Notes: generated from the sequence alone by a model not told the origin. A stretch of DNA of 64,000 nucleotides from Bdellovibrionales bacterium (GCA_965217115.1 OZ244239.1:2106532-2170531); one strand, 5' to 3'; numbered from the stretch's first letter, positions 12,309 to 30,953 are shown. Program-made: numbers and translations.

Positions 12309-12746
12309 ATGAAAAAGTTAATACTGTGTCTGTGTCTTTTAGGAATAGCCAGTCCATCGATGGCCATTGATTTCGATGGTGTTTGGGATGATATTTCCGA
12401 TATAAGAAGATGTGAGAAAAAGGTTGAGGAACGGGATAATCAGATAAAGGAACAGAAGAGACACATAAGAAAAATAACAAGAAAGCTAAGAAGATCAGAG
12501 AGACAAGTGGACGAACTAAATAGAGAGATAGAAGAAAAAGACGCCATCATAAGAGATCTCCGTAGAGGCGAAGGTGTCGTTATGCACATCTGTTCATCGG
12601 AGGCTTACTATGACGGACCCTATGTGGGAAGAGCCCGAACTAAAACTGAAGCAGAAGCAAAATCCATGGGAGACTGTAGAAGAACAAGCGAAAATAAACA
12701 TTGGTGCAAAATCATTTCCTGCGAAAAATACACCGAGGGAAGTTAG
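12309..12746 (+). CDS. Secreted hypothetical protein (coiled coil + Cys-containing C-terminal domain)
   Basis: Signal MKKLILCLCLLGIASPSMA; GGGGGG RBS. Confidence 0.8.
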   Translation: MKKLILCLCLLGIASPSMAIDFDGVWDDISDIRRCEKKVEERDNQIKEQKRHIRKITRKLRRSERQVDELNREIEEKDAIIRDLRRGEGVVMHICSSEAYYDGPYVGRARTKTEAEAKSMGDCRRTSENKHWCKIISCEKYTEGS

Positions 12747-13368: not shown

Positions 13369-13632
13369 ATGAAAAAGCTAATACTGTGTCTGTGTTTTTT
13401 AGGAATAGCCAGTCCATCAATGGCTGGTAGGGCTGGTGATATTTTGGGTAGTACTTGGAGTAGTGGTGATAATAAAAGCGGGCATGAAGAAAAGATTAAA
13501 AAGATTAAAAAGCTGGAAAGTCAGATAGAGAAACAAAAGGGAGATATAGAAAAATTAGAGGAAAAAGTGGACAAAGTAGATGAAAGACTAGGTGCCCTCG
13601 TCAAACTCATATTCGGCTCTTCTTATAGGTAA
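13369..13632 (+). CDS. Truncated paralog of 12309-12746 (C-terminal domain decayed downstream of the stop)
   Basis: Near-identical signal peptide; non-coding 13637-13732 matches the 3' end of the first copy (gtggga..gcccgaacta, caccgagggaagttag). Confidence 0.7.
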   Translation: MKKLILCLCFLGIASPSMAGRAGDILGSTWSSGDNKSGHEEKIKKIKKLESQIEKQKGDIEKLEEKVDKVDERLGALVKLIFGSSYR

Positions 13633-14028
13633 TATTTGTGGGAAAAGCCCGAACTAGAACTATAGAAGCACAAGGGATAATACTTATTTGTGCAAGATCA
13701 CTTCCTGCAAAGACGACACCGAGGGAAGTTAGTTAGTTAGGTTTTAATTAGTTAGTTAAAGTTAAAATTTTTTTATTTTAGTCATGCTGCAAAGGCCACT
13801 CTAGGGAGTGGTCTTTTTTATTGAAGGTTGGCGCAATATGATGCTACGCATTTATGCGTGGAGCTTCCTTTAAAGGGAGTGATGTTTTTGGCGTTCGTTT
13901 CACTTATTTGTAAAACATGGGTGGGGCTGAAGTGGGTTTTAAGTCTTTGACAGGGATAAGCACCTAATATTGAATAGGTAGAGTCCCAAGAAGAGGGCCA
14001 TTTAGTTTTTTTTTACACCTAGGAAACT

Positions 14029-15588
14029 ATGAGCGAAGAAGAGAAAAGAAGACTAAAGCAACAGCTTTGGAGTATCGCCAATGAGCTGCGTGGCAGAATG
14101 GCTGCGGATGAATTTAGAGACTACATCCTGGGCTTTATTTTCTACAAATACTTATCTGAAAAAATGTTAAACTATGCCAACAATCTATTGAAGGAAGATT
14201 CCAAGACGTATCTCTCCCTTGATAATGATTCCCCTGAGAGCAAAGATTTGCTTGATGCAATTAAAGAACAGTCTGTTAGTAACCATGGTTATTTCTTAAA
14301 ACCTTCTGAGTTATTTAGTGAAATTGCCAAACGGGGGAATGGGGATGGAAATAATTTTATTCTCGATGATTTAACGCAAATCCTACGGAATATTGAGCAG
14401 AGCACAATGGGCCATGAGTCAGAGGATGATTTTGGTGATTTGTTTGAGGATATGGATTTGGCATCCACTAAATTAGGTCGAACTGAGGCTGCTAAAAACA
14501 CACTTATCGCAAAAGTGCTGTCCCACCTAGATCAAATTAATTTTGATTTAGAGAATGCCAATTCAGACGTCCTAGGTGATGCCTATGAGTATCTTATTGC
14601 TCAATTTGCAGCAGGAGCGGGCAAGAAAGCGGGTGAGTTTTACACTCCTCAGCAGGTGTCTAAAATTCTTGCCAAGATTGTAACCAATGGAAAAGCCAAA
14701 TTAAAGTCAGTGTATGATCCCACTTGTGGCTCAGGCTCTTTGCTATTGCGTGTGTCTAAGGAAACCGAAGTCTCTAGCTTTTATGGCCAAGAACTAAATC
14801 GCACGACTTATAACTTGGCTCGAATGAATATGATTTTACACAACATCCATTCCCGTGACTTTAACCTTAAGCAAGAAGACACCCTTGAACACCCTCAACA
14901 TATTGATGAGCGGTTTGAGGCGGTGGTGGCCAACCCCCCTTTCTCAGCTGATTGGAGTGCAAACCCTCTTCATATGAATGATGATCGGTTTTCGCAATAT
15001 GGTAAGCTGGCCCCGAAGACAAAAGCTGACTTTGCTTTTGTTCAACACATGATTCACAGTCTTGATGAGAATGGAACAATGGCTGTGGTATTGCCCCATG
15101 GGGTGTTATTTCGTGGGGCATCAGAGGGTCATATTAGGAGATTTTTAATTGAAGATAGAAACTTCCTTGATGCAGTCATTGGTTTACCTGCGAATATTTT
15201 TTATGGGACAAGCATCCCCACTTGTCTCTTGGTTTTTAAAAAATGCCGTGAGGATAGTGGGAACGTTTTATTTATTGATGCCAGCAATGAATTTACTAAA
15301 GAGAAAAATCAAAATATTCTCACCGATGGGAACGTCAACAAAATCATGGAGACCTTTAAAAATAGAAAGGCCATAGAAAAATACTCCTACTTGGCCCCAT
15401 TAAGCGAAATTGAGGAAAACGGTTACAATCTAAACATCCCAAGGTATGTAGACACCTTTGAAGAGGAGAAGCCCATAGACCTTGGAGCTGTCTCTAAAGA
15501 TTTAAAAAGTCTAAATAAAGAAATGGAAGCCACAGATAAAGAGATCACCAAGTTTTGTGATGAGTTGGGTATTGCCACACCGTTTTAA
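14029..15588 (+). CDS. hsdM: Type I restriction-modification methyltransferase subunit
   Basis: LWSIANELRG, GEFYTP, YDPTCGSGSLL, NPPF, YNLNIPRY. Confidence 0.97.
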   Translation: MSEEEKRRLKQQLWSIANELRGRMAADEFRDYILGFIFYKYLSEKMLNYANNLLKEDSKTYLSLDNDSPESKDLLDAIKEQSVSNHGYFLKPSELFSEIAKRGNGDGNNFILDDLTQILRNIEQSTMGHESEDDFGDLFEDMDLASTKLGRTEAAKNTLIAKVLSHLDQINFDLENANSDVLGDAYEYLIAQFAAGAGKKAGEFYTPQQVSKILAKIVTNGKAKLKSVYDPTCGSGSLLLRVSKETEVSSFYGQELNRTTYNLARMNMILHNIHSRDFNLKQEDTLEHPQHIDERFEAVVANPPFSADWSANPLHMNDDRFSQYGKLAPKTKADFAFVQHMIHSLDENGTMAVVLPHGVLFRGASEGHIRRFLIEDRNFLDAVIGLPANIFYGTSIPTCLLVFKKCREDSGNVLFIDASNEFTKEKNQNILTDGNVNKIMETFKNRKAIEKYSYLAPLSEIEENGYNLNIPRYVDTFEEEKPIDLGAVSKDLKSLNKEMEATDKEITKFCDELGIATPF

Positions 15589-15599
15589 AGGGGGGAGAG

Positions 15600-16016
15600 A
15601 TGGATAATGAAGAATTAGATTTAACATCTTTCTCTAGAGCAGTTGAGACGTTTAGGGTGGCACTCGATGAATACACAAAAGATGAAATCAATGATTTCGT
15701 CCGCGATGCTTGTATTCAGCGGTTTAAGTATTGTTATGATTCGTCAAAAAAGATAATAAAGCGTTATTTAAAAGGGGTTGTCGATGACCCTATGGAACTT
15801 GAGAGCATAGGTTTAGCAAACTTAATTAGAGATGCTTATACAAGAGGCTTAGTTAAACATAGTTGGGATGTCTGGGATACGTACCGACTCAATCGCAATG
15901 CCACTTCCCATGGGTATGATGAGGCAACGGCCATCGGAATTGTTGAGGCATTGCCAGCCTTCTACCAAGAGGTCTTATTTTTATTAGAAAGGTTAGGCTC
16001 AAAAAATGAAACTTAA
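15600..16016 (+). CDS. HEPN-domain toxin (HI0074 / HepT-like nucleotidyltransferase substrate-binding protein)
   Basis: RDACIQRF motif; RNATSHGY = RX4HXY; overlaps the next gene by 11 bp. Confidence 0.88.
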   Translation: MDNEELDLTSFSRAVETFRVALDEYTKDEINDFVRDACIQRFKYCYDSSKKIIKRYLKGVVDDPMELESIGLANLIRDAYTRGLVKHSWDVWDTYRLNRNATSHGYDEATAIGIVEALPAFYQEVLFLLERLGSKNET

Positions 16017-17571
16017 ATTTGATGTCACCCCTGAAGAATTCTCCATAATAAGAGATATTTTAGAGAAGAATCTTTCCAGTCATTGCAAGGTTTGGGTATT
16101 TGGCAGTCGCGCTAAAGGCAGTGCCTTATTTAACTCGGATTTGGATGTGGCATTAGAGTGTAAAACTAAAATAGCACAAAAATTTTTAATACAATTAAAA
16201 ACAGATTTTGAAGAGTCAAGACTTCCATATAAGGTGGATGTTTTAGATATAAAGAGTGTCGAACCTTATTTTAAAGAGATCATTGATAAGCAGAAAACCC
16301 CTTTTCCCCTTGAAATAAAAAATAAAGTGCCAAAATTAAGGTTTAAGGAGTTTAGTGGGGAGTGGGAAGAAAAGAAGTATGGTGAGATGTACTCTTTTTT
16401 CACAACTAATTCACTTTCAAGAGAAAACTTAAATTATGAATATGGTAAAGTAAAAAACATTCATTATGGTGACATACATACGAAATTTACAACACTCTTT
16501 GATCTTGAAAAAGAGCAAGTCCCTTTTGTGAATAAAGGGGTAGATATTTCAAAGATAAAATCTGAAAGTTATTGTTTGGAAGGTGATTTGGTAATTGCTG
16601 ATGCTTCGGAAGATTATTTAGCTATCGGAAAAACTATTGAGATAATAAATTTGAATGGTGAAAAAGTAATAGCAGGGCTACATACCTTTTTAGCAAGGCC
16701 CAATAAGCACAAGATAGCATTGGGTTATATTAGCTATTTCCTACAGTCTTGGAAATTTAGAAAACAAATAATGACAATTGCTCAAGGTTCAAAAGTTTTA
16801 AGTATTTCTATACCAAGACTTTCTGCAACAAAACTAACCCTACCAACCAAACCAGAACAACAAAAAATCGCCTCATTCCTAACAGCAGTGGACAGAAAAA
16901 TAGCCCACCTAAATAAAAAGAAATCCTTACTTGAGAGTTATAAAAAAGGCCTAATGCAAAAAATATTCTCACAAACCATCCGCTTCAAAACCAACGACGG
17001 CAACAATTTCCCCGATTGGGAAGAAAAGAGGTTGGGGGATACATCAGAAATAGTTGGGGGAGGCACGCCTCCAACGGGTATTAAGAAATATTGGGATGGT
17101 GATATCCAATGGTTTACACCTACAGAAATCAAGAACAAGTATGTATGTAACAGCAATCGAACTATTACGCGGGCTGGGCTAGACGCATCCTCGGCAAAGT
17201 TACTGCCCAAGGGGACTCTACTTTTTTCTAGTAGGGCTACTATTGGTGAGGTGGGAATAGCGACCCAGGAATGTACAACTAATCAAGGTTTTCAGTCCTT
17301 CATTGTTAATCAAAATCATGAGCCTGAATTTTTATATAACTGGATACTCCAAAATAAGAAGAAATTTATTAAAGGAGCTTCAGGTTCTACTTTCCTAGAA
17401 ATCGGAAAGAATGAAATTAAAAGAATAGAATTAAACTTACCAATAAAACCAGAACAACAAAAAATTGCTTCATTCCTAACAGCAGTGGACAGAAAAATTG
17501 AACAATTGAATGAAAAGCAAAAATTATTTGGTGAATTTAAAAAAGCACTCCTCCAACAGATGTTTGTATAA
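16006..17571 (+). CDS. hsdS: Fusion: N-terminal MNT nucleotidyltransferase (MntA-like, ~100 aa) + type I specificity subunit HsdS
   Basis: VFGSRAKGSALFNSDLD = GSX10DXD, LPYKVDV; then VPKLRF..EW, two TRDs, repeated P.KPEQQKIASFLTAVDRKI, terminal KKALLQQMF. Confidence 0.92.
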   Translation: MKLKFDVTPEEFSIIRDILEKNLSSHCKVWVFGSRAKGSALFNSDLDVALECKTKIAQKFLIQLKTDFEESRLPYKVDVLDIKSVEPYFKEIIDKQKTPFPLEIKNKVPKLRFKEFSGEWEEKKYGEMYSFFTTNSLSRENLNYEYGKVKNIHYGDIHTKFTTLFDLEKEQVPFVNKGVDISKIKSESYCLEGDLVIADASEDYLAIGKTIEIINLNGEKVIAGLHTFLARPNKHKIALGYISYFLQSWKFRKQIMTIAQGSKVLSISIPRLSATKLTLPTKPEQQKIASFLTAVDRKIAHLNKKKSLLESYKKGLMQKIFSQTIRFKTNDGNNFPDWEEKRLGDTSEIVGGGTPPTGIKKYWDGDIQWFTPTEIKNKYVCNSNRTITRAGLDASSAKLLPKGTLLFSSRATIGEVGIATQECTTNQGFQSFIVNQNHEPEFLYNWILQNKKKFIKGASGSTFLEIGKNEIKRIELNLPIKPEQQKIASFLTAVDRKIEQLNEKQKLFGEFKKALLQQMFV

Positions 17572-17580
17572 AGGCTGGTA

Positions 17581-18138
17581 ATGAATATGGAAAGATGTAG
17601 AAAGTGGTTAAAGTTTTTTGGGATCGGACTTATATCCCTTGTGTTAATTTACTTTCTCTGGATTTCTCTCATAGAATTATGGTGCATATTCTCCTTAGGC
17701 GATAAAGATATTAAATCTACGATAATAGGTATATTTGTCACTGCCGTTGTTTCTTTAACAGGTATTCTTATCTCTAAAAAATTAGATAGAAAAAATCAAG
17801 AACAAAAAGATCTAAGAGACCTTAGGACCCCATCCTATGAAGAGTTTATTTCTTTTGTGTTTAAAGCAATGTTTTCTGTAAAAAAAGGCAGGAAACCTAT
17901 GGGTGTAGGGGAAATTAATAAAGAAATGGAAAGGTTGACCCCGTTACTTATAGCGCAAGCCTCTGAAAAAGTTCTCCTTGCGTATGAAAGATTCAGAGAA
18001 GAAGAAGATGATGAGATTGAAAGAATAAATACTATATTAAAGTTAGTTTTAATAATGAGGGAAGATTTAGGCTACACAAATAAAGGTATTTCTATTGAGA
18101 CCCTCAAAAATATTTTTATAATAAAAGAGAGCGATTAA
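17581..18138 (+). CDS. Hypothetical membrane protein (2 N-terminal TM segments) inside the type I R-M operon
   Basis: 185-aa ORF with two hydrophobic stretches, co-oriented between hsdS and hsdR. Confidence 0.75.
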   Translation: MNMERCRKWLKFFGIGLISLVLIYFLWISLIELWCIFSLGDKDIKSTIIGIFVTAVVSLTGILISKKLDRKNQEQKDLRDLRTPSYEEFISFVFKAMFSVKKGRKPMGVGEINKEMERLTPLLIAQASEKVLLAYERFREEEDDEIERINTILKLVLIMREDLGYTNKGISIETLKNIFIIKESD

Positions 18139-18160
18139 AAGACACTTAATAGAGAGACCT

Positions 18161-18814
18161 ATGGATTCTTTTAAGAAGTTAATAAATGAAAATTCAATAT
18201 ATTTTGAGAAGATGGAGTATTATTTTGCGATCGCCCAAGAAGCTGAAGTAAATTTGAGAGACAACCCTGATATTTCGATAGAAAGCTGTAAATCACTTAT
18301 AGAAGGAGTCTCGAAGTATATTCTTAGTGTGTTATTAGCTGAAAATTATAATGATAACACTATTTCAAGAAAGAAGTTTAAAGCCATAGTAAATACCATG
18401 TTAAAAGAGGTGGCTAAACGCAGAGGAGCCATTGATGACAACCATTTTATATCCCAATGCTTGGAGTTTGTAGGGATTTTAGGTAAAACTAGAAATGACA
18501 GGGGAGACATTTGCCATGGAAGATGCTCTCCTAAGGAAGAAGTGAGTTCTCCTGAACTAGCAAAGCTTGTTTTCAGTATGACTGATGCTGTGTTGTCATA
18601 TATACTAGATATTTTTTTTCAAATAGAGGACCCTCGAATCAAAGAAGAAGAATCTTACGATCATGAATCTCTTAGGGATTTCAATGATTATTTAGATGAA
18701 GAAAATCCGTTGGATGATGGCATAAGCTATAGTAAAGCTATTTTTTATCAAGACCCCATAGCGTATAAAGTAAAATATGATAATTTCTTAGACAATCAAG
18801 AGGCCAATCAATGA
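18161..18814 (+). CDS. Abortive-infection family protein (Abi_C, HEPN-like)
   Basis: SIESCKSLIEGVSKYIL and RNDRGDICHG motifs; ATGA overlap with hsdR. Confidence 0.72.
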   Translation: MDSFKKLINENSIYFEKMEYYFAIAQEAEVNLRDNPDISIESCKSLIEGVSKYILSVLLAENYNDNTISRKKFKAIVNTMLKEVAKRRGAIDDNHFISQCLEFVGILGKTRNDRGDICHGRCSPKEEVSSPELAKLVFSMTDAVLSYILDIFFQIEDPRIKEEESYDHESLRDFNDYLDEENPLDDGISYSKAIFYQDPIAYKVKYDNFLDNQEANQ

Positions 18815-21645
18815 CAATTCAATCCGAAAATACCCTAGAGAATTTGCTTATTGAGCAGTTGGTGTCATTGGAATACGAAAAAGTGTCAGCGAACACCGAA
18901 GAGAAGCTATTGGTTAATTTAAAGACCCAGTTGGAAAAACACAACAAAACGACCTTTAGCGGGATTGAGTTTAAGCGCATTATGAACCACCTTAGCAGGG
19001 GTAGTGTTTTTGAGAAATCCAAGATTCTTAGAGACAAGTTTGTGCTTAATCGAGAAGATGGAACTAAGAGCTATATCAATTTTTTAGATAGCACACACTG
19101 GTGTCAGAACTTATTTCAAGTCACCAGTCAAGTCACCATTGAGGGGAAATACAAAAACCGTTACGATGTAACTCTTCTAATAAACGGTCTTCCCCTTGTG
19201 CAAATCGAGTTAAAGCGCAGAGGGTCAGAACTTAAAAAAGCTTTTAATCAAAATAACCGTTATCAAAGGCACTCTTTCCATGCCAATAGTGCCTTATTCG
19301 GGTATGTGCAAATATTTGTCATTTCAAATGGAGTCAATACTAAGTACTATGCCAATAATAGAGATCAATCTTTTAAACAAACTTTTTTCTGGGCTGATAA
19401 AGACAACAGAAACATAACAAACCTGAATAAATTCACAGGGAGTTTCTTAGAGAGATGTCATATCTCAAAAATGATCTGTAGATATATCGTTTTAGCCGAG
19501 AGTGATAAAAGACCTATGGTTTTGCGTCCATATCAGTACTACGCCACTGAATTGATTCTTGATAGAGTGGTTAACTCCAATAGAAATGCTTACATCTGGC
19601 ACACCACGGGGAGTGGAAAAACATTAACATCATTTAAAACTTCACAGTTACTAATGAAACTTCCGCAAGTGTATAAGGTGGTCTTTGTTGTAGATAGAAA
19701 GGATTTAGATTATCAAACCACTAAAGAATTTAATAGTTTTAGCAGTGGTAGCGTGGATGGCACAGACAACACCCAAGCCCTGGTGAGACAATTCAACGAT
19801 GATACAAAACTCATTGTCACCACCATCCAAAAGCTAAATACGGCGATCAGTAAAGAGCGATATCTGTCCACCATGGAAAATTTAAAAGACAAGAACATCG
19901 TATTTATTCTCGATGAATGTCATCGTTCACAATTTGGAGAGACTCACCTAAAGATTACAAAGTTTTTCGAGAAAAGCCAGATGATTGGCTTCACAGGCAC
20001 GCCGATATTTGCACAAAATGCTGTTGCCAATACGATTGGCAAGCGCACCACTGCCGATCTATTTGATAAATGCCTCCATAAATATGTCATCACTGACGCG
20101 ATTGCTGACGATAATGTGTTGAAATTCTCCATTGAGTATGTCGGTAGATATAGACAAAGAGAAGGCAGTGCTAATAGTATTGATATTAAAGTTGAGAATA
20201 TTGACACTAAAGAGGCACTAGAATCTGATGATAGATTAGAGAAAATCACAAACTACATTATTGCAAACCATGGTCGTAAGACACATGCTAAAGATTTTAA
20301 TGCCATGCTTGCTGTGAGCGGTATTTCGACACTAACAAAGTACTATGAGCTATTTAAATCAAAAAAGGAAAGGGGTGAGCATAATCTAAAAATAGCAACC
20401 ATCTTTAGTTACAGTGCCAATGAGGATGATAAAGACGCTGATGGTATTCCTGAATCAGAGGGCGCAAATGTTGATGAGGCCAATATTAATCAGCACAGTC
20501 GAGATAAATTAGAGAGTTATATTGAAGATTACAACCAGTTATTTGGCACGAAGTTTACCACCAAGGAGTCGCAGAGTTATTATAACTATTATAATGACAT
20601 TGCTAAACGAGTAAGAAACAGGGAAATTGATATTTTGCTAGTGATTAATATGTTTTTGACAGGTTTTGATAGCCCTACACTTAACACCCTGTATGTGGAT
20701 AAAAAGTTAAAGTATCATGGACTCATTCAAGCCTTTTCACGGACCAATAGGATTGTGGCTGAAAAGAAATCCCAAGGAAATATTGTAAGTTTTAGAAATC
20801 TTAAAGAGGCCACCGATGAAGCGATCACCCTATTCTCAAATAAGGATGCCAGAGAGAAAATATTGATTCAGCCTTATGAGGAGTATGTCGAGTTGTTTAA
20901 CAAAGCATTTGCAACCCTACTGGGCATAGCACCCAGTGTTAATAGCGCGGGTGCCTTAGTGACTAAGGAAGAGCAGCTAAAATTCATTAAAGCCTTTAGA
21001 GAGTTGATGCGGCTAAAGAATGTTCTCTCTGGATTTAGTGATTTTAATTTCTCAGATTTATCTATGGGAGAGCAGCAGTTCGAGGATTACAAGTCTAAGT
21101 ATCTCGATTTGTATGAGGCAGTTAAGTACAGTATGGAGGATAACAGAGTATCTATACTTGATGATGTGGATTTTGAACTGGACCTCCTCCACAGAGATGA
21201 AATCAATGTGGATTATATATTGAAGCTTCTTACTGAATACAATGGAAGCACAGAAGAACAATGGGATGAGAAGAAGGAAAATATTTTTAATCTCATATCT
21301 GGCCAAGAACACTTAAGGTCTAAGAGAGAATTAATTGAAGAATTTATCGACAATAACTTAATAAATATCTCTAACGGAGATGATATTGAGACTGAGTTTA
21401 ATAAATTCTGGGAGGAACAGAAATCAAAGGAACTTACTGAGTTATGCGATGAAGAGAATTTAGACAAGCCTCGCGTTAAGAGCCTTATCGAAACCTACAT
21501 CTACGATCAACGTGAGCCACTGGGCGATGATATCGCTAAAACACTACAAACCAAATTCAAATTACTAGAGCGACAAAAAGTGATCTCAAGGGTCCTTAAT
21601 ATGCTCATGAAGCATATTGAAAAATTCTATAACGCAAAGACCTGA
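18811..21645 (+). CDS. hsdR: Type I restriction endonuclease subunit R
   Basis: RYDVTLLINGLPLVQIELK nuclease motif; HTTGSGKT; DECHRSQ; FTGTP; TGFDSP; QAFSRTNR. Confidence 0.97.
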   Translation: MTIQSENTLENLLIEQLVSLEYEKVSANTEEKLLVNLKTQLEKHNKTTFSGIEFKRIMNHLSRGSVFEKSKILRDKFVLNREDGTKSYINFLDSTHWCQNLFQVTSQVTIEGKYKNRYDVTLLINGLPLVQIELKRRGSELKKAFNQNNRYQRHSFHANSALFGYVQIFVISNGVNTKYYANNRDQSFKQTFFWADKDNRNITNLNKFTGSFLERCHISKMICRYIVLAESDKRPMVLRPYQYYATELILDRVVNSNRNAYIWHTTGSGKTLTSFKTSQLLMKLPQVYKVVFVVDRKDLDYQTTKEFNSFSSGSVDGTDNTQALVRQFNDDTKLIVTTIQKLNTAISKERYLSTMENLKDKNIVFILDECHRSQFGETHLKITKFFEKSQMIGFTGTPIFAQNAVANTIGKRTTADLFDKCLHKYVITDAIADDNVLKFSIEYVGRYRQREGSANSIDIKVENIDTKEALESDDRLEKITNYIIANHGRKTHAKDFNAMLAVSGISTLTKYYELFKSKKERGEHNLKIATIFSYSANEDDKDADGIPESEGANVDEANINQHSRDKLESYIEDYNQLFGTKFTTKESQSYYNYYNDIAKRVRNREIDILLVINMFLTGFDSPTLNTLYVDKKLKYHGLIQAFSRTNRIVAEKKSQGNIVSFRNLKEATDEAITLFSNKDAREKILIQPYEEYVELFNKAFATLLGIAPSVNSAGALVTKEEQLKFIKAFRELMRLKNVLSGFSDFNFSDLSMGEQQFEDYKSKYLDLYEAVKYSMEDNRVSILDDVDFELDLLHRDEINVDYILKLLTEYNGSTEEQWDEKKENIFNLISGQEHLRSKRELIEEFIDNNLINISNGDDIETEFNKFWEEQKSKELTELCDEENLDKPRVKSLIETYIYDQREPLGDDIAKTLQTKFKLLERQKVISRVLNMLMKHIEKFYNAKT

Positions 21646-21729
21646 TTACTCCTAAAAAAAAGTCGAAGCCCAAACTGAGGCAGGGTCAAAGTTTATGGAG
21701 ATATGCAAGAAAATAGTCACAGATACTAT

Positions 21730-23631
21730 TTAGGTGTCATTATTTTTTATATCTACTGGGTTAGACCAAATTTTTTCTAAATTTACAGTGTCGCTATTTG
21801 GCTGATTAGCTTTATCTAAGAGATCTATAGTGGTCTTCACAGGTAAATTTGTTGCTACTCCAGCAAAAAAACAACTTCCAACTGATAAAATAGGTATGGA
21901 TTCAAAAGATAGCTTGTCTAAGTAAGCAACGGCTTTATGAATTGCATTTATATCAGAATCATTTAATAATTTGTGAATGAAATAATTATGCAACTGTGAA
22001 ATCATTGTGGTTGATATATCCTGTGGCCTCTGGCTGGCGATGGTTAAAAATGTATTAAATTTTCTACCCTCTTTGATAATCTCCTCAAATATTTCTAATC
22101 TGTAATCTTTCCAACTTTCGCTCTCTCGTGCTGATTTATCCGATAGGATATTGTGAGCTTCATCAATGATCAAATGTAATGATTTTTCTTTAAAATCTTT
22201 GTCTGCCTTATGAGTTTCATATAATTTTTTGATTATCAACAATGGCAATGTTTTTTTGATTTCTGTATTAACATCCTTCAAGTTAATAATGATTAAGTTT
22301 TTTTTATCAAAGATATCGGAGTCACTTCCTGTATTTAAAACTTTTTCAATATCTTTTTGCTTGCTCTTTAGTTTGTTGATAGCTGGCGCAATATGGTCAT
22401 TTTGAGCTTTATCATTATAAACGTCATAAATTATTTGCAAATACAGGAAATGTATAAATTTTGATATAGAATCTTTTGGGAACTCATAAGTGTCAATTCT
22501 TCTATATATGTCTAACTCTTCAATATCATTATCAACTAGCTTGTGTCGGGGGTTACCATAATTATTTGGAATAAACCCTTTAGGATCTACTCCTGATCCA
22601 CCACCATGCCATTCTAATCTAGCAAATATTTCTTCATCAGTTTTTTTTATTATATTTTCGAAATAGTCAAGTAATGTAAAAGCCTTATCTTTTAAGATCA
22701 TGCGGTAGATTTTTTTTAGCTCAGATCTTAATGAATTTTTGAAATGGTTTAAAGATTCGTTATGCACTTTGTGTACACGTTTATATAATCTGATAGTTCT
22801 TTCTATAAAAGGCTTCTGTGTTTTTTCTGTTGCATTTGCTAAAATTGAAAGTAACTCAATGTCAATTAAATCTTTTTCATGTAATGGAATTTTATCTTCC
22901 CCGTTCTCTGTTGCTGTGCTTAGAGTATAAACTTTTTTATTCTCTGTGATAATTTGATCTTGGTCCTCATCCTCATCTTTTCCACCATACTCGCCGTTAA
23001 AATCTATAATTACAAACCGAGATTTTTCCTTAAAATCGTCACGTTCCTCCATGAGCTTAAAAAGTTCATAGTATATTTTTGCTAGAGTATGGGATTTCCC
23101 ACTTCCAGTATTACCAAAAATACCGATGTGGCTTGCAAATAGTTGGTTAATAGATACTTTTATTTTTTGTGCAGGTTCATCTGACAGAGAGCCGATAGTA
23201 ATCGTTTTTTCATCTTCTCTATGGAACTGATGCAGTTGACGAAATTCATCTCTGTCGAGTAAATAACAATCATTGTCAACAAGTGGCATTTCTTTTATAC
23301 CTTGCCTAAACTTACTTCCTTCAAAATAACCAGCTAATGAAACTTCTAAAAACCGCTCAATATTATCCTCTTCCTTGTTATATTCTTTATGAGTAACTGC
23401 TTTAGTCCCTATAGATTCACCTTCAATTTTACCAATAATATTAGTAAATCCCTTGGTTATTTTAATGTAACTATTAACGGAGATATTTTTTAAGACTTGA
23501 CCATCAAATAAGAGATGAGATGCATTTTTGTTTTTATTAACCTTAATTCTAACAGATCTACCAGAGATGGAGTGGACTGAGCCAACTATAAAAACTGACT
23601 CCCTCTTTAATTGACTCTTGACATCACGCAT
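21730..23631 (-). CDS. herA: HerA-family (DUF87) ATPase/helicase
   Basis: HIGIFGNTGSGKS, IIDFNGEY, IIDEAH, EGRKF, SQRP; start at ATG 23631 overlapping the Sir2 stop is preferred to the track start 23655. Confidence 0.92.
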   Translation of the reverse strand: MRDVKSQLKRESVFIVGSVHSISGRSVRIKVNKNKNASHLLFDGQVLKNISVNSYIKITKGFTNIIGKIEGESIGTKAVTHKEYNKEEDNIERFLEVSLAGYFEGSKFRQGIKEMPLVDNDCYLLDRDEFRQLHQFHREDEKTITIGSLSDEPAQKIKVSINQLFASHIGIFGNTGSGKSHTLAKIYYELFKLMEERDDFKEKSRFVIIDFNGEYGGKDEDEDQDQIITENKKVYTLSTATENGEDKIPLHEKDLIDIELLSILANATEKTQKPFIERTIRLYKRVHKVHNESLNHFKNSLRSELKKIYRMILKDKAFTLLDYFENIIKKTDEEIFARLEWHGGGSGVDPKGFIPNNYGNPRHKLVDNDIEELDIYRRIDTYEFPKDSISKFIHFLYLQIIYDVYNDKAQNDHIAPAINKLKSKQKDIEKVLNTGSDSDIFDKKNLIIINLKDVNTEIKKTLPLLIIKKLYETHKADKDFKEKSLHLIIDEAHNILSDKSARESESWKDYRLEIFEEIIKEGRKFNTFLTIASQRPQDISTTMISQLHNYFIHKLLNDSDINAIHKAVAYLDKLSFESIPILSVGSCFFAGVATNLPVKTTIDLLDKANQPNSDTVNLEKIWSNPVDIKNNDT

Positions 23632-24748
23632 CGCTGCTATCCTCTTTTGTGGCATTCATTTTTTTAAATATTTGATCAGTTATTCTTTCTAAACCATAGT
23701 TATCTCCATTTTTAGGTGCGATAATTTTTATATTATGATTTTTTGATGTCTCCATTAATTCGTTAAGATATGCTCCACTGTCCTCTGAATAAGAAAAAAC
23801 ATACACTTGCAACGTTGGATTTGATCTTGCTGCTCTTTTCGTGATCTCTTTAATATGTTGGTCCTTCATTGAGAAACCAATGACAAATAGGACAGAATTT
23901 TCTTTCTCCAATTCATTAGAATATGAGCGTAACAGTTCATAGTAGTATTTGTTTAAAACTGTCTCAGAGAACTTAGTCTCTTCAGGGTTAACAACAAGGA
24001 TCTTTTTTTGATATTCTTTTAGGAAAGTTCTTTTTTTCTTTATTAAAGAACGCTCAAAATGAGACAAGTCTGAAGATAAATATATTTTCCTATTCTCATT
24101 GTTGAGATCAGACTCGTTATATTTCCAATTAACAGAGCCGTGAATTTTAAAAATATTAAATATAGGGATTTCAGAACGTTTATCAAAATGTTGACTTCTT
24201 TGTATAATTGATTGCTTAAAATTACTCAAATCAAAAACAGGGTTCATTTTACCTAGAAAGCCATCATTATAATGAATTTCTAAATCTTCTAATACTTTTT
24301 CAAAAAAAATATCAATATTTGTCGTGAATATATTTACCTGTCGTCCTATTACAGTTGTTTTTCTATCTAGAATGAGCTTTGATAGAGTCGTAAGGAAATT
24401 CATATAGTTCCTGTACGTTATCCATAAGCTTATCTTGTTGGGCTCAGCTTCTTCTTGTAATTTATCGTGTCTATATTTAGAGCAGGGCTCTTTGAAATCA
24501 TATGAAATTATATATTTATTTGGAAGCATCACTTTTTCAAAATACTCTTTGTATTTATCTGATTTTTCGACTGCCTTTTTTGCGTTATTTATATCGTGCT
24601 CAATATTATTTAACGTCGGAAGGCATGGCTGAGATATGCCTGATCCCATTAAGAAATTAATATTTGCACTAGCAAATATGTCTTTGAACCTTGGCAATAA
24701 ATGCTCTAATTCATCTTGAGTATTATCCTCGTCACTCACTTGAACCAC
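23624..24748 (-). CDS. SIR2-like domain protein (NADase of a Sir2-HerA defence system)
   Basis: NFLMGSGIS, FTTNID, KIHGS, IGFSMKDQHI; directly upstream of herA. Confidence 0.88.
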   Translation of the reverse strand: MVQVSDEDNTQDELEHLLPRFKDIFASANINFLMGSGISQPCLPTLNNIEHDINNAKKAVEKSDKYKEYFEKVMLPNKYIISYDFKEPCSKYRHDKLQEEAEPNKISLWITYRNYMNFLTTLSKLILDRKTTVIGRQVNIFTTNIDIFFEKVLEDLEIHYNDGFLGKMNPVFDLSNFKQSIIQRSQHFDKRSEIPIFNIFKIHGSVNWKYNESDLNNENRKIYLSSDLSHFERSLIKKKRTFLKEYQKKILVVNPEETKFSETVLNKYYYELLRSYSNELEKENSVLFVIGFSMKDQHIKEITKRAARSNPTLQVYVFSYSEDSGAYLNELMETSKNHNIKIIAPKNGDNYGLERITDQIFKKMNATKEDSSDA

Positions 24749-28099: not shown

Positions 28100-29770
28100 T
28101 CAGATGCTCCAAATTTCATTATAGGCTTTTTCCGACAAGTACTTAGTTCTCTCTAGAATCTTTTCTTTTGACCATTCGGGAGCCTCAAGAATATTTTTCT
28201 CGAAATGGGGATATTTGCTTACAAATATTTCTTTTTTATCAATAAAAGATTTATTCTTAAGTTCCTCGCTATTATCTTTAGCTGTAACAAAGACAAGATT
28301 TCCAATATTAGCTTTATCGTTCATAGGCAGATCATCAACACTCTGAGAAGCAATATGCTCAATTGTCATTAAACTGTAGTCTAGAGGTGTTCCTCTTCGA
28401 GAAGCTTCGTCAAATTTCCTCAAAATATATTGAATTATTTTTTTATCTTTAGTAAATTTATCTGAATATTTTAGATCAGCAAATGCAAGCTCAAACTCCT
28501 CATATGTTGGCTTATCCTGAGCTAACTTATTTTTAACATTATTTAAAACTGCGACCTTTTCTTGTTCATCTGGAGCGTGCCTTAGCTCTCTTGCTTTTTT
28601 AGCATAGTAAGATGAAAGACCACCTGAAGAACGCTGTGAGGTAACTGCATTGTGCATGAAGTGAAACTTTTCAATATAGTTAATGTATTTTTTTGCGTTT
28701 TTTAAGTTTATTTTTGTTGCATAATATTCAGCTAATATTGCAAGAACTATTGGCAATGGTTGTCTAACCTTAAAAACAGACAATGCTTCTAAGGATCTTT
28801 TTAAATTTTCTTCTTCATTAGTCCACTCCATATACGTTGGTTCATATATAGCTCTGTAATATTTAGACTCAATTAGCATTGCTTCTAAATGTTCTGATAC
28901 ATTTTCTGAATTGACGTTGTTTTTAAATTCTTTAAAAAGTTTCTTTTGTGTTGTGTATGTTTCTTTAGATAACCAGTAGTGGTAAATGAAAGTATTTATA
29001 TCAATATCTATTTTTGAGGTTTGAATATTCCCGAGCATTTCCTTCCACTTGTCACGTACTCGATCCAATGTTTCTGTTTCACTTCTTAAAAGTTTTGTAA
29101 TATGGTTTTTCACTAAGTCTGATGGCTGTAGATCTTTTCCACGCGTATTCAATGTTTCAAATATAATATACGCGTCATCTTCATTATCAAGTTCAATAAA
29201 TATTACTTTTAATCTAACAACCTGATCTCTTAAAGCCTTCAGATAATTAATTTTTTCTTTATCTGATTCAAAGTCATTAAGTTCACTACGAATTAAGCCT
29301 TTAAGAAGTTCAAAAGCATCTCTTAAAGCTTTTTCTTCATCTGTTATTGAGGTCATATTTTCATTATTATTAAAGCTTTGAATGCATTTATGAAAGTATG
29401 GATAAGACATTTCTGTCTGCAGAATAAACTGATCTTTATTATCCAGATCTTTTTTCATGATAAGTCGCTGAATGCCCTTCGCTAATTCTTCATTGTCTAA
29501 AATCTTTAAATGATCTCGAATCGCAGAGAATATTAAAGTTAAAGATGTTAATCTTTGCTGGCCGTCTACAATCCCAAATAAACTTTGTTGCTTTTTGAAA
29601 ACGACCATTGAACCAATGAAATATTCATTATCTGCTCTGTTCGTAATATCTGCCCAAAACTCTACTACATTATCTTTTTCCCAAGAGTATGGTCTTTGAA
29701 AGCGAGGTATTTGGTAAAAGCCACTTTCCAAAATTGATTTTATATCTTTATCTATGCTTGAAACTTTCAT
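28100..29770 (-). CDS. DUF262 + DUF1524 (HNH) protein, GmrSD/SspE-like
   Basis: IPRFQRPYSW, DGQQR, FETLNTRG, TIEHI...NIGNL; ATG 29770 preferred (just after the MTase stop). Confidence 0.9.
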   Translation of the reverse strand: MKVSSIDKDIKSILESGFYQIPRFQRPYSWEKDNVVEFWADITNRADNEYFIGSMVVFKKQQSLFGIVDGQQRLTSLTLIFSAIRDHLKILDNEELAKGIQRLIMKKDLDNKDQFILQTEMSYPYFHKCIQSFNNNENMTSITDEEKALRDAFELLKGLIRSELNDFESDKEKINYLKALRDQVVRLKVIFIELDNEDDAYIIFETLNTRGKDLQPSDLVKNHITKLLRSETETLDRVRDKWKEMLGNIQTSKIDIDINTFIYHYWLSKETYTTQKKLFKEFKNNVNSENVSEHLEAMLIESKYYRAIYEPTYMEWTNEEENLKRSLEALSVFKVRQPLPIVLAILAEYYATKINLKNAKKYINYIEKFHFMHNAVTSQRSSGGLSSYYAKKARELRHAPDEQEKVAVLNNVKNKLAQDKPTYEEFELAFADLKYSDKFTKDKKIIQYILRKFDEASRRGTPLDYSLMTIEHIASQSVDDLPMNDKANIGNLVFVTAKDNSEELKNKSFIDKKEIFVSKYPHFEKNILEAPEWSKEKILERTKYLSEKAYNEIWSI

Positions 29771-29777
29771 TGTTGAA

Positions 29778-30953
29778 TTAGCCCCCATACTCTTTTGGAA
29801 GTTCTTTCGTAAAATTAACTTGAAACTCATCTTTATTATAGTTAGGAATAAGCTTCAAATTTTTTGAGTTTACTTTGTCATCAAAAAACTGTTTTCTAAT
29901 TTCTTTACCAAGAAGTTCACCAATAGCAGAAGGGACAGCGTTTCCAATTTGCTTTTGAACATTAGAGTTCCCGCCTAATATTTCCACATCATCAGGAAAA
30001 GTTTGAATTCTGGCCATTTCTCTCATTGTGAGTCTTCTGTTATTCCAATGAAAAGGGCCGATAGCTGTTCCTGGTTGTGCTTGAATTGTCCAACTTGGTT
30101 TATCCGGGTGAAGTTTTAATAAGAAACTCCAATATCTTGAACGCCATTTAAAGAGTGGTTGTCCATTCCCCCTTTCGGTATGGAAAAGATAATTTTCTCC
30201 GGGAGGTATTGAAGGTAGCAATGCGCCCCATTTTCCTCCAACTTCTGATTCGTGATGAGTTTCCTCTTCTGGTACAAGATCACCAATTGCATCCCAAGCC
30301 GTTCTGAAAGTTTTGCCTCCAATTGCAAGCATTGGATTGTCATCATCTTTAGGAAAGAAACGAGCTTTTGGAAAATCAAATTCGTAACCATCTCTTGAAC
30401 CAATAATGAAAACACGTTCTCTGATCTGAGACACACCAAAATGAGCTGTGTTTATTACTTTCCATTTAAAAGTGTAATTTACATCATTTCGTTCATTGAT
30501 TTCTTTAATTGTATTTTCAAGGTAGCGAAGACCTTCATCTTTTCCCTTATAAGCAAGGCCAAAGACATTTTCTAATATAAAAGCATGAGGAAGAGTATCT
30601 TCTAAAACTCGCATATATTGATTAAGGGTATTTGATCTAGGGTCTTTCAATCTTTTAGCATCACCATCTCTCCAATACCCAGATTTTGAAAAAGGTTGGC
30701 ATGGTGGTCCACCAATTAAAAGTCCAGCGTCGCCTCTTTTAAGCTTGGCTGCTTCTAAAATAGTTGCACTATCTACATTTTCAATTCTATCTTCAATAAT
30801 AGGCCAGTTACGATTATGTCTTAATGTTTTACAACACCACTTATCCATTTCAACTGCAACAGCAGTATTAAAACCTGCAGCTTCAACTCCGTAGTCGAGT
30901 CCTCCTGCACCTGTATAAAGACTAATTACTTTCTTGAGATTTTTTTTACTCAT
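29778..30953 (-). CDS. DNA (cytosine-5)-methyltransferase
   Basis: SLYTGAGG, GGPPCQPFS, ENV, Q.RERVF, RIQTFPD, QIGNAVP. Confidence 0.95.
   Translation of the reverse strand: MSKKNLKKVISLYTGAGGLDYGVEAAGFNTAVAVEMDKWCCKTLRHNRNWPIIEDRIENVDSATILEAAKLKRGDAGLLIGGPPCQPFSKSGYWRDGDAKRLKDPRSNTLNQYMRVLEDTLPHAFILENVFGLAYKGKDEGLRYLENTIKEINERNDVNYTFKWKVINTAHFGVSQIRERVFIIGSRDGYEFDFPKARFFPKDDDNPMLAIGGKTFRTAWDAIGDLVPEEETHHESEVGGKWGALLPSIPPGENYLFHTERGNGQPLFKWRSRYWSFLLKLHPDKPSWTIQAQPGTAIGPFHWNNRRLTMREMARIQTFPDDVEILGGNSNVQKQIGNAVPSAIGELLGKEIRKQFFDDKVNSKNLKLIPNYNKDEFQVNFTKELPKEYGG

Follow-up and report, generated by a model that had tools for sequence, protein, structure and literature searches.

HEPN RNases and minimal nucleotidyltransferases (MNTs) form toxin-antitoxin (TA) pairs of type VII, in which the antitoxin modifies the toxin covalently. 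As set out in PMC7641770, an MNT of the MntA type uses its GSX10DXD motif to move AMP from ATP to the tyrosine of the RX4HXY motif in its HEPN partner, blocking the RNase; the AMPylated residue is Y104 in Shewanella oneidensis (PMC7641770) and Y105 in Legionella pneumophila (PMC11586414). Here we describe a type I restriction-modification (R-M) operon in which a HEPN gene is followed by an open reading frame (ORF) that joins an MNT to the specificity subunit, HsdS. The operon lies in a 64,000-nucleotide (nt) window of a Bdellovibrionales bacterium (GCA_965217115.1 OZ244239.1:2106532-2170531), and positions are given in window coordinates. We consider the ORF at 16006-17571 to be a genuine, maintained fusion of an HI0073-type MNT to HsdS (MNT::HsdS) that would form, with the HEPN protein, a type VII-like TA pair built into the R-M enzyme, so that control of the toxin is tied to an R-M subunit. 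We assign this reading a probability of about 0.5.

The closest characterized relative is the L. pneumophila type VII pair lpg2920/lpg2921 (Protein Data Bank [PDB] entries 8xdj, 8yuf, 8xeo, and 8xeh; PMC11586414). Both of its parts belong to the same fold subfamilies as those of the window, and the two pairs have in common an RX4HXY motif with an acceptor tyrosine, an MNT without a long C-terminal helix, and overlapping genes (by 8 bp there and by 11 nt, 16006-16016, in the window). The Legionella MNT, which is described as binding a HEPN tetramer, is a free protein of 99 to 104 amino acids (aa), whereas that of the window is the N-terminal domain of HsdS; the available text of PMC11586414 does not mention an R-M context. 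The two also differ at the catalytic metal-binding Glu47 of the Legionella HEPN, which is a lysine in the window. The S. oneidensis pair HepT/MntA (5yep, 6m6v, and 7bxo) is more distant. Its MNT has the GSX10DXD motif of the window MNT and polyadenylylates the RX4HXY tyrosine, but MntA has an additional C-terminal helix with no counterpart in the window MNT, and HepT relies on RX4H for catalysis (PMC7641770). The solved sequences nearest to the window MNT and HEPN are Haemophilus influenzae HI0073 and HI0074 (1no5 and 1jog), which are, however, two separate small proteins. To our knowledge, the papers reporting these structures assign them no function beyond that of a “two-protein nucleotidyltransferase.”

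A precedent for a HEPN nuclease linked to an R-M enzyme is PrrC. As in the window, the gene for a HEPN-superfamily RNase lies in an EcoR124-family (type IC) operon, and silencing by the R-M enzyme EcoprrI with release upon phage attack has been proposed or shown in the accounts given in PMC3874165 and PMC3632139. PrrC is a fusion of an ATP-binding cassette (ABC) ATPase to HEPN that is silenced by noncovalent binding to EcoprrI, whereas the window encodes a small HI0074-type HEPN whose presumed silencer is attached covalently to HsdS. Membership of the window protein in the PrrC/RloC family was considered and rejected: it is 138 aa long with a single NTase_sub_bind domain, and no ABC ATPase was found in the operon by ORF listing and Pfam search. 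More broadly, the text of PMC3710099 links at least 16 HEPN clades to R-M operons, proposes that R-M subunits inhibit these HEPNs in the manner of PrrC until a viral counterattack releases them, describes fusions of HEPN domains to nucleases, helicases, and ATPases, and states that the MNT is almost always 5' in MNT-HEPN dyads. The window has the opposite order, HEPN and then MNT. Covalent fusion of an MNT antitoxin is itself known from the FhepTA proteins, in which the linker and the fusion affect stability and AMPylation, but there the fusion partner is the toxin (PMC13000451); in the window it is a restriction subunit, and the toxin is a separate protein.

Domain searches of the 521-aa ORF identified Polbeta at residues 15 to 96 (Pfam; E 4.9e-11), NTP_transf_2, and Methylase_S in two stretches (E 7.6e-47). 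The MNT domain contains GSX10DXD (GSRAKGSALFNSDLD; G33 S34 x10 D45 L D47) and matches HI0073 (1no5) with E 3.5e-13 and 37% identity over 97 columns. An AlphaFold2 model of the fusion, built with 31 fused homologs as input, has a mean predicted local distance difference test score (pLDDT) of 87.2 and a predicted template modeling score of 0.64, with a compact MNT fold at residues 9 to 96. In Foldseek searches, the modeled MNT matched 1no5_B (template modeling score of target [TMt] 0.84; root mean square deviation, 1.8 Å), 8xeo_A (TMt 0.85), and 7bxo_A. Judged from its sequence, the window MNT belongs to the HI0073-like branch and not to the MntA equivalog. The remainder of the ORF has the two target recognition domains (TRDs), separated by conserved helices, that are expected of HsdS, and its model matched 1yf2_A (E 1.4e-27), EcoKI 2y7c_A, and EcoR124I 7bst_A. 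A 141-nt direct repeat (16827-16967 and 17424-17564; 75% identity, 597 nt apart) encodes the two conserved HsdS helices. A repeat of this kind is what TRD exchange or half-gene deletion usually acts on.

The junction between the two parts reads through without a stop (TPFPLEIKNKVPKLRF). Because the PADLOC model Specificity_I aligns residues 105 to 521 of the fusion to its positions 5 to 411, the MNT and HsdS are joined essentially end to end (..FPLE into ..VPKLRF..). The tether of about 20 residues is poorly ordered in the model, with a mean pLDDT of 58 at residues 101 to 110 and values below 50 at 104 to 106. It is conserved among 31 aligned fused proteins, in which F100 is present in 31, P101 is present in 29, and P109-x-L111 R112 F113 is invariant. 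The HEPN gene upstream has a strong Shine-Dalgarno (SD) sequence (aaaggggggagagATG), and hsdM, hsdS, and hsdR are co-oriented in one cluster whose HsdR carries an EcoR124_C domain, as in the EcoR124 (type IC) family; that label follows PMC3874165 and is also used in NCBI protein names. The original prediction, made from the sequence alone, had placed a 138-aa HEPN protein with the motif RNATSHGY between hsdM and hsdS, overlapping by 11 nt an ORF whose first 100 or so residues are a complete MNT that runs without a stop into a two-TRD HsdS. The motifs and the junction that it quoted are all found in the sequence. The ORF list, Pfam, and NCBIfam agree on the HEPN gene; the Pfam search of 16006-17571, PADLOC, and the structural model agree on the fusion; and the domain calls and operon content bear out the placement of the pair within a type I R-M operon.

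A fused reading frame could still yield two products, if an internal start (GTG108 here or Met97 in many relatives) produced an ordinary HsdS and the fused protein were minor or served only as antitoxin. We regard this as doubtful. Of 19 fused sequences (the window and 18 loci), 11 have GTG as the codon preceding PxLRF, but the other 8 have GTA, GTT, ATA, ACT, or GAA, none of which is a start codon. No SD-like sequence is conserved ahead of codon 108 among these 19, and the window has no SD-like purine run before GTG108 (gaaataaaaaataaa), as had been claimed for this junction at the outset. Residue 97 is methionine in 17 of the 31 fused proteins, near the start of the canonical HsdS model at about residue 101, and may be a relic of an HsdS start; it is lysine in 12, including the window (AAA). 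A scan of 13500-21900 found 21 promoter-like sites against 26.4 expected, with nothing above chance inside the operon (terminator-like sites numbered 8, against 5.7 expected).

If the fusion were an accident of this genome or of its assembly, it would not be expected in other records. A database search with residues 1 to 115 against proteins of 286 to 912 aa returned 153 candidates, of which 36, including the window protein, passed at E <= 1e-3; all 36 contain Polbeta and Methylase_S. Thirty-one of these were aligned, with five short or truncated sequences omitted (P0008, P0016, P0026, P0028, and P0035). G33, S34, R35, K37, D45, D47, V77, and D78 are invariant in all 31, and the TRDs vary freely. 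Residues 1 to 105 were also compared by phmmer with 1.84 billion cluster representatives at 50% identity, which gave 2,803 matches at E <= 1e-3, of which 359 reach E <= 1e-10. Among the best 150 of the 2,803, Pfam was applied to the 109 longer than 140 aa (the other 41 have at most 140 aa), and 85 of the 109 contain both Polbeta and Methylase_S; these 85 are clusters and not lineages, since TRD swapping inflates cluster counts.

Species genomes of GTDB, scanned with the N-terminal alignment, gave 118 pattern matches and 29 confirmed loci (numbered with the prefix L). The MNT is fused to HsdS in 19 of them: 14 are intact (L001, L002, L003, L005, L007 to L012, L014, L016, L019, and L020), 3 end at a contig edge (L004, L006, and L015), and 2 are broken inside HsdS (L013 and L017). 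The remaining 10 have a free or decayed MNT (L018 and L021 to L029). Of the 19 fused loci, all but L019 (that is, 18) have a HEPN gene immediately 5' of the fusion, and the order hsdM-HEPN-MNT::hsdS is found in 16. The stop of the HEPN gene and the start of the MNT overlap by 4 to 23 nt in the window and also in 16 of the 18 HEPN-bearing fused loci, and HEPN precedes MNT in the window and 27 of the 29 loci. Hosts of related loci belong to the Bacteroidota, Campylobacterota, Alpha-, Beta-, and Gammaproteobacteria, Spirochaetota, and Nitrospinota. The fusion also occurs in a finished RefSeq sequence, the 32-kb plasmid pZMOB01 of Zymomonas mobilis ATCC 10988, a nonpathogenic strain in culture (L030, 3-5154), where an HI0074-type HEPN is followed by a 527-aa MNT::HsdS, annotated as “restriction endonuclease subunit S,” and then by HsdR. 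Because this HsdR is of the HindI-like (T1RH-like_C) family, the fusion is not confined to EcoR124-family systems.

How often the fusion occurs, and with what synteny, had been left as a question by the original prediction, which counted a one-off fusion among the findings that would speak against it; the 85 clusters and 19 loci show instead that the fusion is frequent. Since the architecture recurs in independent records, it reflects neither chance nor assembly error, and both explanations were rejected. A sequencing or assembly error that dropped a stop or shifted the frame near 16310, which has nothing but general possibility in its favor, is scarcely credible given the same continuous frame in 14 intact independent loci, 35 other database proteins, and the finished plasmid. 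Sequence comparison further indicates that the fused MNT is under purifying selection, with dN/dS ratios of 0.12 to 0.26 over 99 MNT codons in five ungapped close pairs, by a rough Nei-Gojobori estimate. Pairs with L010 were omitted because of indel misalignment, L010 and L013 are identical, and L006-L009 gave no ratio, being saturated at synonymous sites.

Several of these records show further arrangements. The fused gene of L008 (5022-6017) is preceded by an MNT fragment and by two HEPN genes in tandem. In an Ekhidna metagenome-assembled genome, an orphan MNT::HsdS (L019, 4079-7563) comes after another HsdS gene and a 187-aa ORF that matches AAA_13 weakly; L020, from the same genome, is a complete system arranged hsdR-HEPN-MNT::hsdS-hsdM. 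Other MNT fusions among the database matches are P0112 (the C-terminal part of NTase_sub_bind, Polbeta, and Methylase_S), P0146 (HEPN::MNT), P0339 (Polbeta with exosortase domains), and P0340 (Polbeta with a DEAD/ResIII helicase).

MNT is also fused to a second type I subunit. All six N-extended HsdR proteins that we tested (L009, L010, L011, L012, L014, and L016; 1,045 to 1,301 aa) have an N-terminal Polbeta domain ahead of HSDR_N, and five of these six loci have their own NTase_sub_bind (HI0074-type HEPN) gene just upstream (E ~1e-40). When the HsdR-type MNT domain was compared with proteins of 588 to 1,873 aa, 39 of 41 matches were MNT::HsdR, including proteins of Vibrio penaeicida and Marinomonas transparens. 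Some operons bear both the HsdS and the HsdR fusion, each with its own HEPN. In a tree of MNT domains (32 rows, 100 columns), the HsdR-fused MNTs group apart from the rest in a clade supported at 100/100, from which we conclude that MNT was fused to type I subunits at least twice. The same tree does not separate HsdS-fused from free MNTs (4 label changes), and the bootstrap does not settle their order. The parallel fusion to HsdR is the main reason that we prefer functional, physical coupling over accident.

The fusion might nevertheless have arisen and persisted without any sensing of phage or of the R-M enzyme. On this account, an addiction module became lodged in the R-M operon, and a near-neutral loss of a stop between coupled genes was kept because it locked the supply of antitoxin to hsdS expression, a selfish stabilization of the locus. 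In L025, the stop of a free MNT overlaps the GTG start of HsdS (GTGTCTGA), so that a one-base indel would join the two frames. Free HEPN-MNT pairs of the same family occur outside R-M operons (L022, L026, L027, and L029) and, in one case, upstream of hsdM (L018); the gap between hsdS and hsdR is a general landing site for genes encoding DUF488, DUF3800, RelE, Fic, T5orf172, and GmrSD; and the text of PMC2701414 draws an analogy between TA and R-M systems as selfish modules. A neutral accident, however, would not be expected to be the majority architecture of the nearest relatives (85 of the best 150 clusters), to recur with a different MNT clade on HsdR, or to conserve F100, P101, and the tether, and an unfused adjacent antitoxin would stabilize the locus about equally well. 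We consider selfish stabilization rather unlikely.

The HEPN protein belongs to the family of HI0074. It matches Pfam NTase_sub_bind with E 2.3e-24 (86.2 bits; cut-off, 31.8) and passes the NCBIfam HI0074 family (TIGR01987) with 61.6 bits against a cut-off of 55.8. Its sequence matches in the PDB are 1jog (HI0074; E 2.9e-12) and the L. pneumophila structures 8yuf and 8xdj (E ~3e-7). Its model (pLDDT 92.2) superimposes on 1jog_D with a template modeling score of 0.87 and on the Legionella HEPN with 0.81 to 0.84; for the Shewanella HepT, the value is about 0.6 (E >0.1). In an alignment of 24 HEPNs, Y106 is present in all 24, R99 in 23, and H104 in 22. Excluded from this alignment were the HEPNs adjoining MNT at L005, L011, L013, L014, L017, L021, and L024, which have an uncertain start or are duplicates.

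The family name in Pfam, “nucleotidyltransferase substrate binding protein like,” recalls the idea originally attached to HI0073/HI0074, under which the HEPN would be the substrate-binding partner of a two-protein nucleotidyltransferase and not a toxin. The pair tethered to HsdS would then nucleotidylate an R-M subunit, DNA ends, or a phage protein. PMC3710099 describes fused nucleotidyltransferases in which the MNT-HEPN interaction has been exapted and the HEPN domains are without the RNase residues. The clade of the window HEPN, however, conserves the acceptor tyrosine in 24 of 24 members as well as RNase-type residues, and both characterized relatives of the fold consist of a toxin and an AMPylating antitoxin. 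We consider this alternative improbable.

We return to the TA pair built into the R-M enzyme. With type VII HEPN/MNT systems, the window has in common a GSX10DXD MNT, an RX4HXY HEPN, and adjacent, co-oriented, overlapping genes. By analogy with those systems, the tethered MNT would use ATP to AMPylate Tyr106 of the cotranslated HEPN, and the modification would hold a Mg2+-dependent HEPN RNase silent. Since HsdS itself carries the neutralizing enzyme (as HsdR carries a second MNT in relatives), control of the toxin would depend on the synthesis and integrity of an R-M subunit. If the R-M enzyme were lost, truncated, or disabled, or if ATP were depleted, newly made HEPN would be left unmodified and translation would stop. 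The result would be a PrrC-like second line of defense or a dead-man switch, and the biological outcome could be abortive defense upon disablement of the R-M enzyme or stabilization of the locus. A guard function of this kind is plausible.

A stronger form of this proposal treats each fused subunit as a built-in dead-man switch: the N-terminal AMPylase of HsdS in the window, or those of both HsdS and HsdR in relatives such as Marinobacterium ramblicola and Marinomonas arctica, would continuously silence its own HEPN until a phage inhibitor, proteolysis, gene loss, or the collapse of ATP freed the RNase and shut down translation. We offer this form as speculative and unlikely. Were it true, the covalent tether would be the sensor wiring of a two-layer immunity and a mechanistically new answer to the problem that PrrC solves noncovalently.

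Several observations weigh against toxin control through the R-M subunit, one of them in the HEPN active site. As reported in PMC11586414, the L. pneumophila HEPN is a Mg2+-dependent RNase whose active site is Q44/E47 (IQAFE) and not RX4H, and the substitutions Q44A and E47A, but not R98A and H103A, abolish its RNase activity and toxicity. In a pairwise alignment, Q40 and K43 of the window stand opposite Q44 and E47, so that the glutamate of the Mg2+ site is not kept. Position 43 is glutamate in 22 of the 24 aligned HEPNs, lysine in the window only, and glycine in L027. The original prediction had held that both catalytic motifs look intact, while noting that the usual IQRFE reads IQRFK here. 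The first statement is not borne out, in view of K43, and the caveat may be decisive where this copy is concerned. Should the Legionella mechanism apply, the window HEPN is weakened or dead because Lys43 replaces the metal-binding glutamate. To judge from the sequence, the toxin of this copy has probably been weakened or lost while the architecture was kept, and the window may have no toxin to guard.

The HEPN/MNT pair can decay while the fusion persists, as L019 and L008 indicate: no HEPN, hsdM, or hsdR was found within 6 kb of the MNT::HsdS gene of L019, and one HEPN beside the intact fusion of L008 lacks R99 and H104. A further change, H104Q, is found in L025. The MNT part scores 39.2 bits, below the 60-bit cut-off of the NCBIfam MntA_antitoxin equivalog. 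No PADLOC model covers the HEPN, and Met97 may allow a separate HsdS product in the members that have it. Two further points concern the mechanism. AMPylation is covalent, so that release of the toxin upon loss of the R-M enzyme would need fresh HEPN synthesis or de-AMPylation. Further, the fusion alone does not police HsdS function, because a nonsense mutation 3' of the MNT leaves the antitoxin intact.

The Lys43 substitution, together with HEPN decay beside the fusions of L008 and L019, could mean that the locus is a relic in this genome: E43K would have disarmed the toxin, and a still functional HsdS would carry an MNT that is harmless or vestigial. We find this quite possible, at somewhat less than even odds. 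K43 occupies a position that is essential in the closest characterized homolog and is the lone lysine among 24 HEPNs. The HEPN ORF, however, is full length and preceded by a strong SD sequence, Q40, R99, H104, and Y106 are intact, and so is the MNT motif. The role of the glutamate rests on one study of a homolog with about 20% identity, and lysine at position 43 could alter activity without abolishing it.

The covalent MNT-HsdS link and the parallel MNT-HsdR link appear to have been undescribed so far. Full-text literature searches found no description of MNT::HsdS or MNT::HsdR, and the available texts of PMC3710099, PMC3632139, PMC12839542, PMC13000451, PMC2701414, PMC3506569, and PMC3874165 do not mention an MNT fused to either subunit. 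The terms “HsdS,” “S subunit,” and “specificity subunit” have no occurrences in the text of PMC3710099, although this text-based search could miss an architecture drawn in its figures, whose legend defines “RM_TRD,” or in its supplement. The idea of a guard is less new than had been implied at the outset, because PrrC-like control of HEPNs in R-M operons has been in print since 2013 (PMC3710099).

The coupling of immunity to suicide or dormancy has been argued from gene neighborhoods since 2012 to 2013, and PrrC-EcoprrI is almost its sole worked example. Of the kinds of genomic evidence that can point to a link both physical and functional, an antitoxin enzyme carried covalently on HsdS, and independently on HsdR, is the strongest. 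Current catalogs of defense systems miss the architecture because “restriction endonuclease subunit S” or “subunit R” is all that the annotation of these proteins says; PADLOC has no model for the HEPN. There is a practical side as well: where such an HsdS is present in strains with engineered R-M barriers, as with pZMOB01 of Z. mobilis, deletion of hsdS could unmask a toxin.

The features of the operon, together with the MNT::HsdR regions of related loci, are listed in Table 1.

Table 1. Features of the window operon and MNT::HsdR regions in related loci (window coordinates unless a locus is named)
Feature	Position	Strand	Description
hsdM	14029..15588	+	519 aa, type I methyltransferase subunit; Pfam N6_Mtase E 1.3e-110, HsdM_N E 2.1e-19; PADLOC MTase_I E 1.2e-160
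HEPN gene	15600..16016	+	138 aa, HI0074/NTase_sub_bind family, putative RNase toxin; R99-x4-H104-x-Y106 (RNATSHGY)
HEPN Lys43 codon AAG	15726..15728	+	IQRFK; opposite Mg2+-binding Glu47 of L. pneumophila HEPN
HEPN Tyr106 codon TAT	15915..15917	+	Predicted AMP acceptor; invariant in 24/24 HEPNs
MNT::HsdS fusion ORF	16006..17571	+	521 aa, no stop; Pfam Polbeta and 2x Methylase_S; AlphaFold2 mean pLDDT 87.2
MNT domain, HI0073-type minimal nucleotidyltransferase	16006..16305	+	Residues 1-100; G33 S34 ... D45 x D47 ... D78
Junction/tether	16306..16365	+	Residues 101-120; MNT C-terminal tail (FPLE) into HsdS N-terminus VPKLRFKEFSGEW
GTG (Val108)	16327..16329	+	Sole in-frame start-type codon near junction; candidate start for separate HsdS
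HsdS body	16366..17571	+	TRD1, central helix 282-321, TRD2, C-terminal helix 481-520 (DSSP of model)
ORF without known family	17581..18138	+	185 aa, N-terminus hydrophobic by eye, passenger between hsdS and hsdR
Abi_C-like ORF	18161..18814	+	217 aa, second putative abortive-infection component; Pfam Abi_C E 7e-4, 20.1 bits, under cut-off of 24
hsdR	18811..21645	+	944 aa, EcoR124 family, without MNT domain; Pfam HSDR_N (from residue 4), SWI2_SNF2, T1R_D3-like, EcoR124_C; PADLOC REase_I
MNT::HsdR region, L009	7511-11766		
MNT::HsdR region, L010	8020-11731		
MNT::HsdR region, L011	8246-11784		
MNT::HsdR region, L012	7727-12053		
MNT::HsdR region, L014	8038-11758		
MNT::HsdR region, L016	7699-10911		

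Two genes separate hsdS from hsdR in the window. The 185-aa ORF had no family match in Pfam, NCBIfam, or PADLOC, and its nearest Atlas clusters are unnamed hypothetical proteins (score, 0.94). The Abi_C-like protein has a homolog in L011 (34% identity; E 8e-33) that itself scores E 6e-10 for Abi_C, and the two proteins have the motif G.xRNxxxDIxHGR in common. Together, the two genes may be a further abortive-infection module within the operon. The slot 3' of hsdS is also occupied in L001, L002, L005, L007, L010, L014, and L020, by genes for DUF488, DUF2971, DUF3800, RelE, an SF1 helicase with Fic, T5orf172, and GmrSD-like proteins.

The window is chromosomal and Bdellovibrio-like: its Ffh shares 72 to 75% identity with Bdellovibrio proteins, and its genes include mutS2, lnt, prfC, ffh, and lptD. 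Directly downstream of the operon, at 21730-24748 on the minus strand, PADLOC matched HerA (641 aa; E 7.8e-182) and SIR2 (374 aa; E 3.4e-63). Because this SIR2-HerA-type system adjoins the operon, the region can be described as a defense island. Farther along the minus strand, a dcm-type cytosine-5 DNA methyltransferase gene (29778-30953; NCBIfam E 1.2e-48) overlaps a 576-aa ORF (28100-29830) without an NCBIfam match, and the two may constitute another R-M system. Just 5' of the operon, two small ORFs on the plus strand (12309-12746 and 13369-13632) encode near-identical signal-peptide-like N termini (MKKLILCLC.LGIASPSMA) followed by charged, coiled-coil-like sequence.

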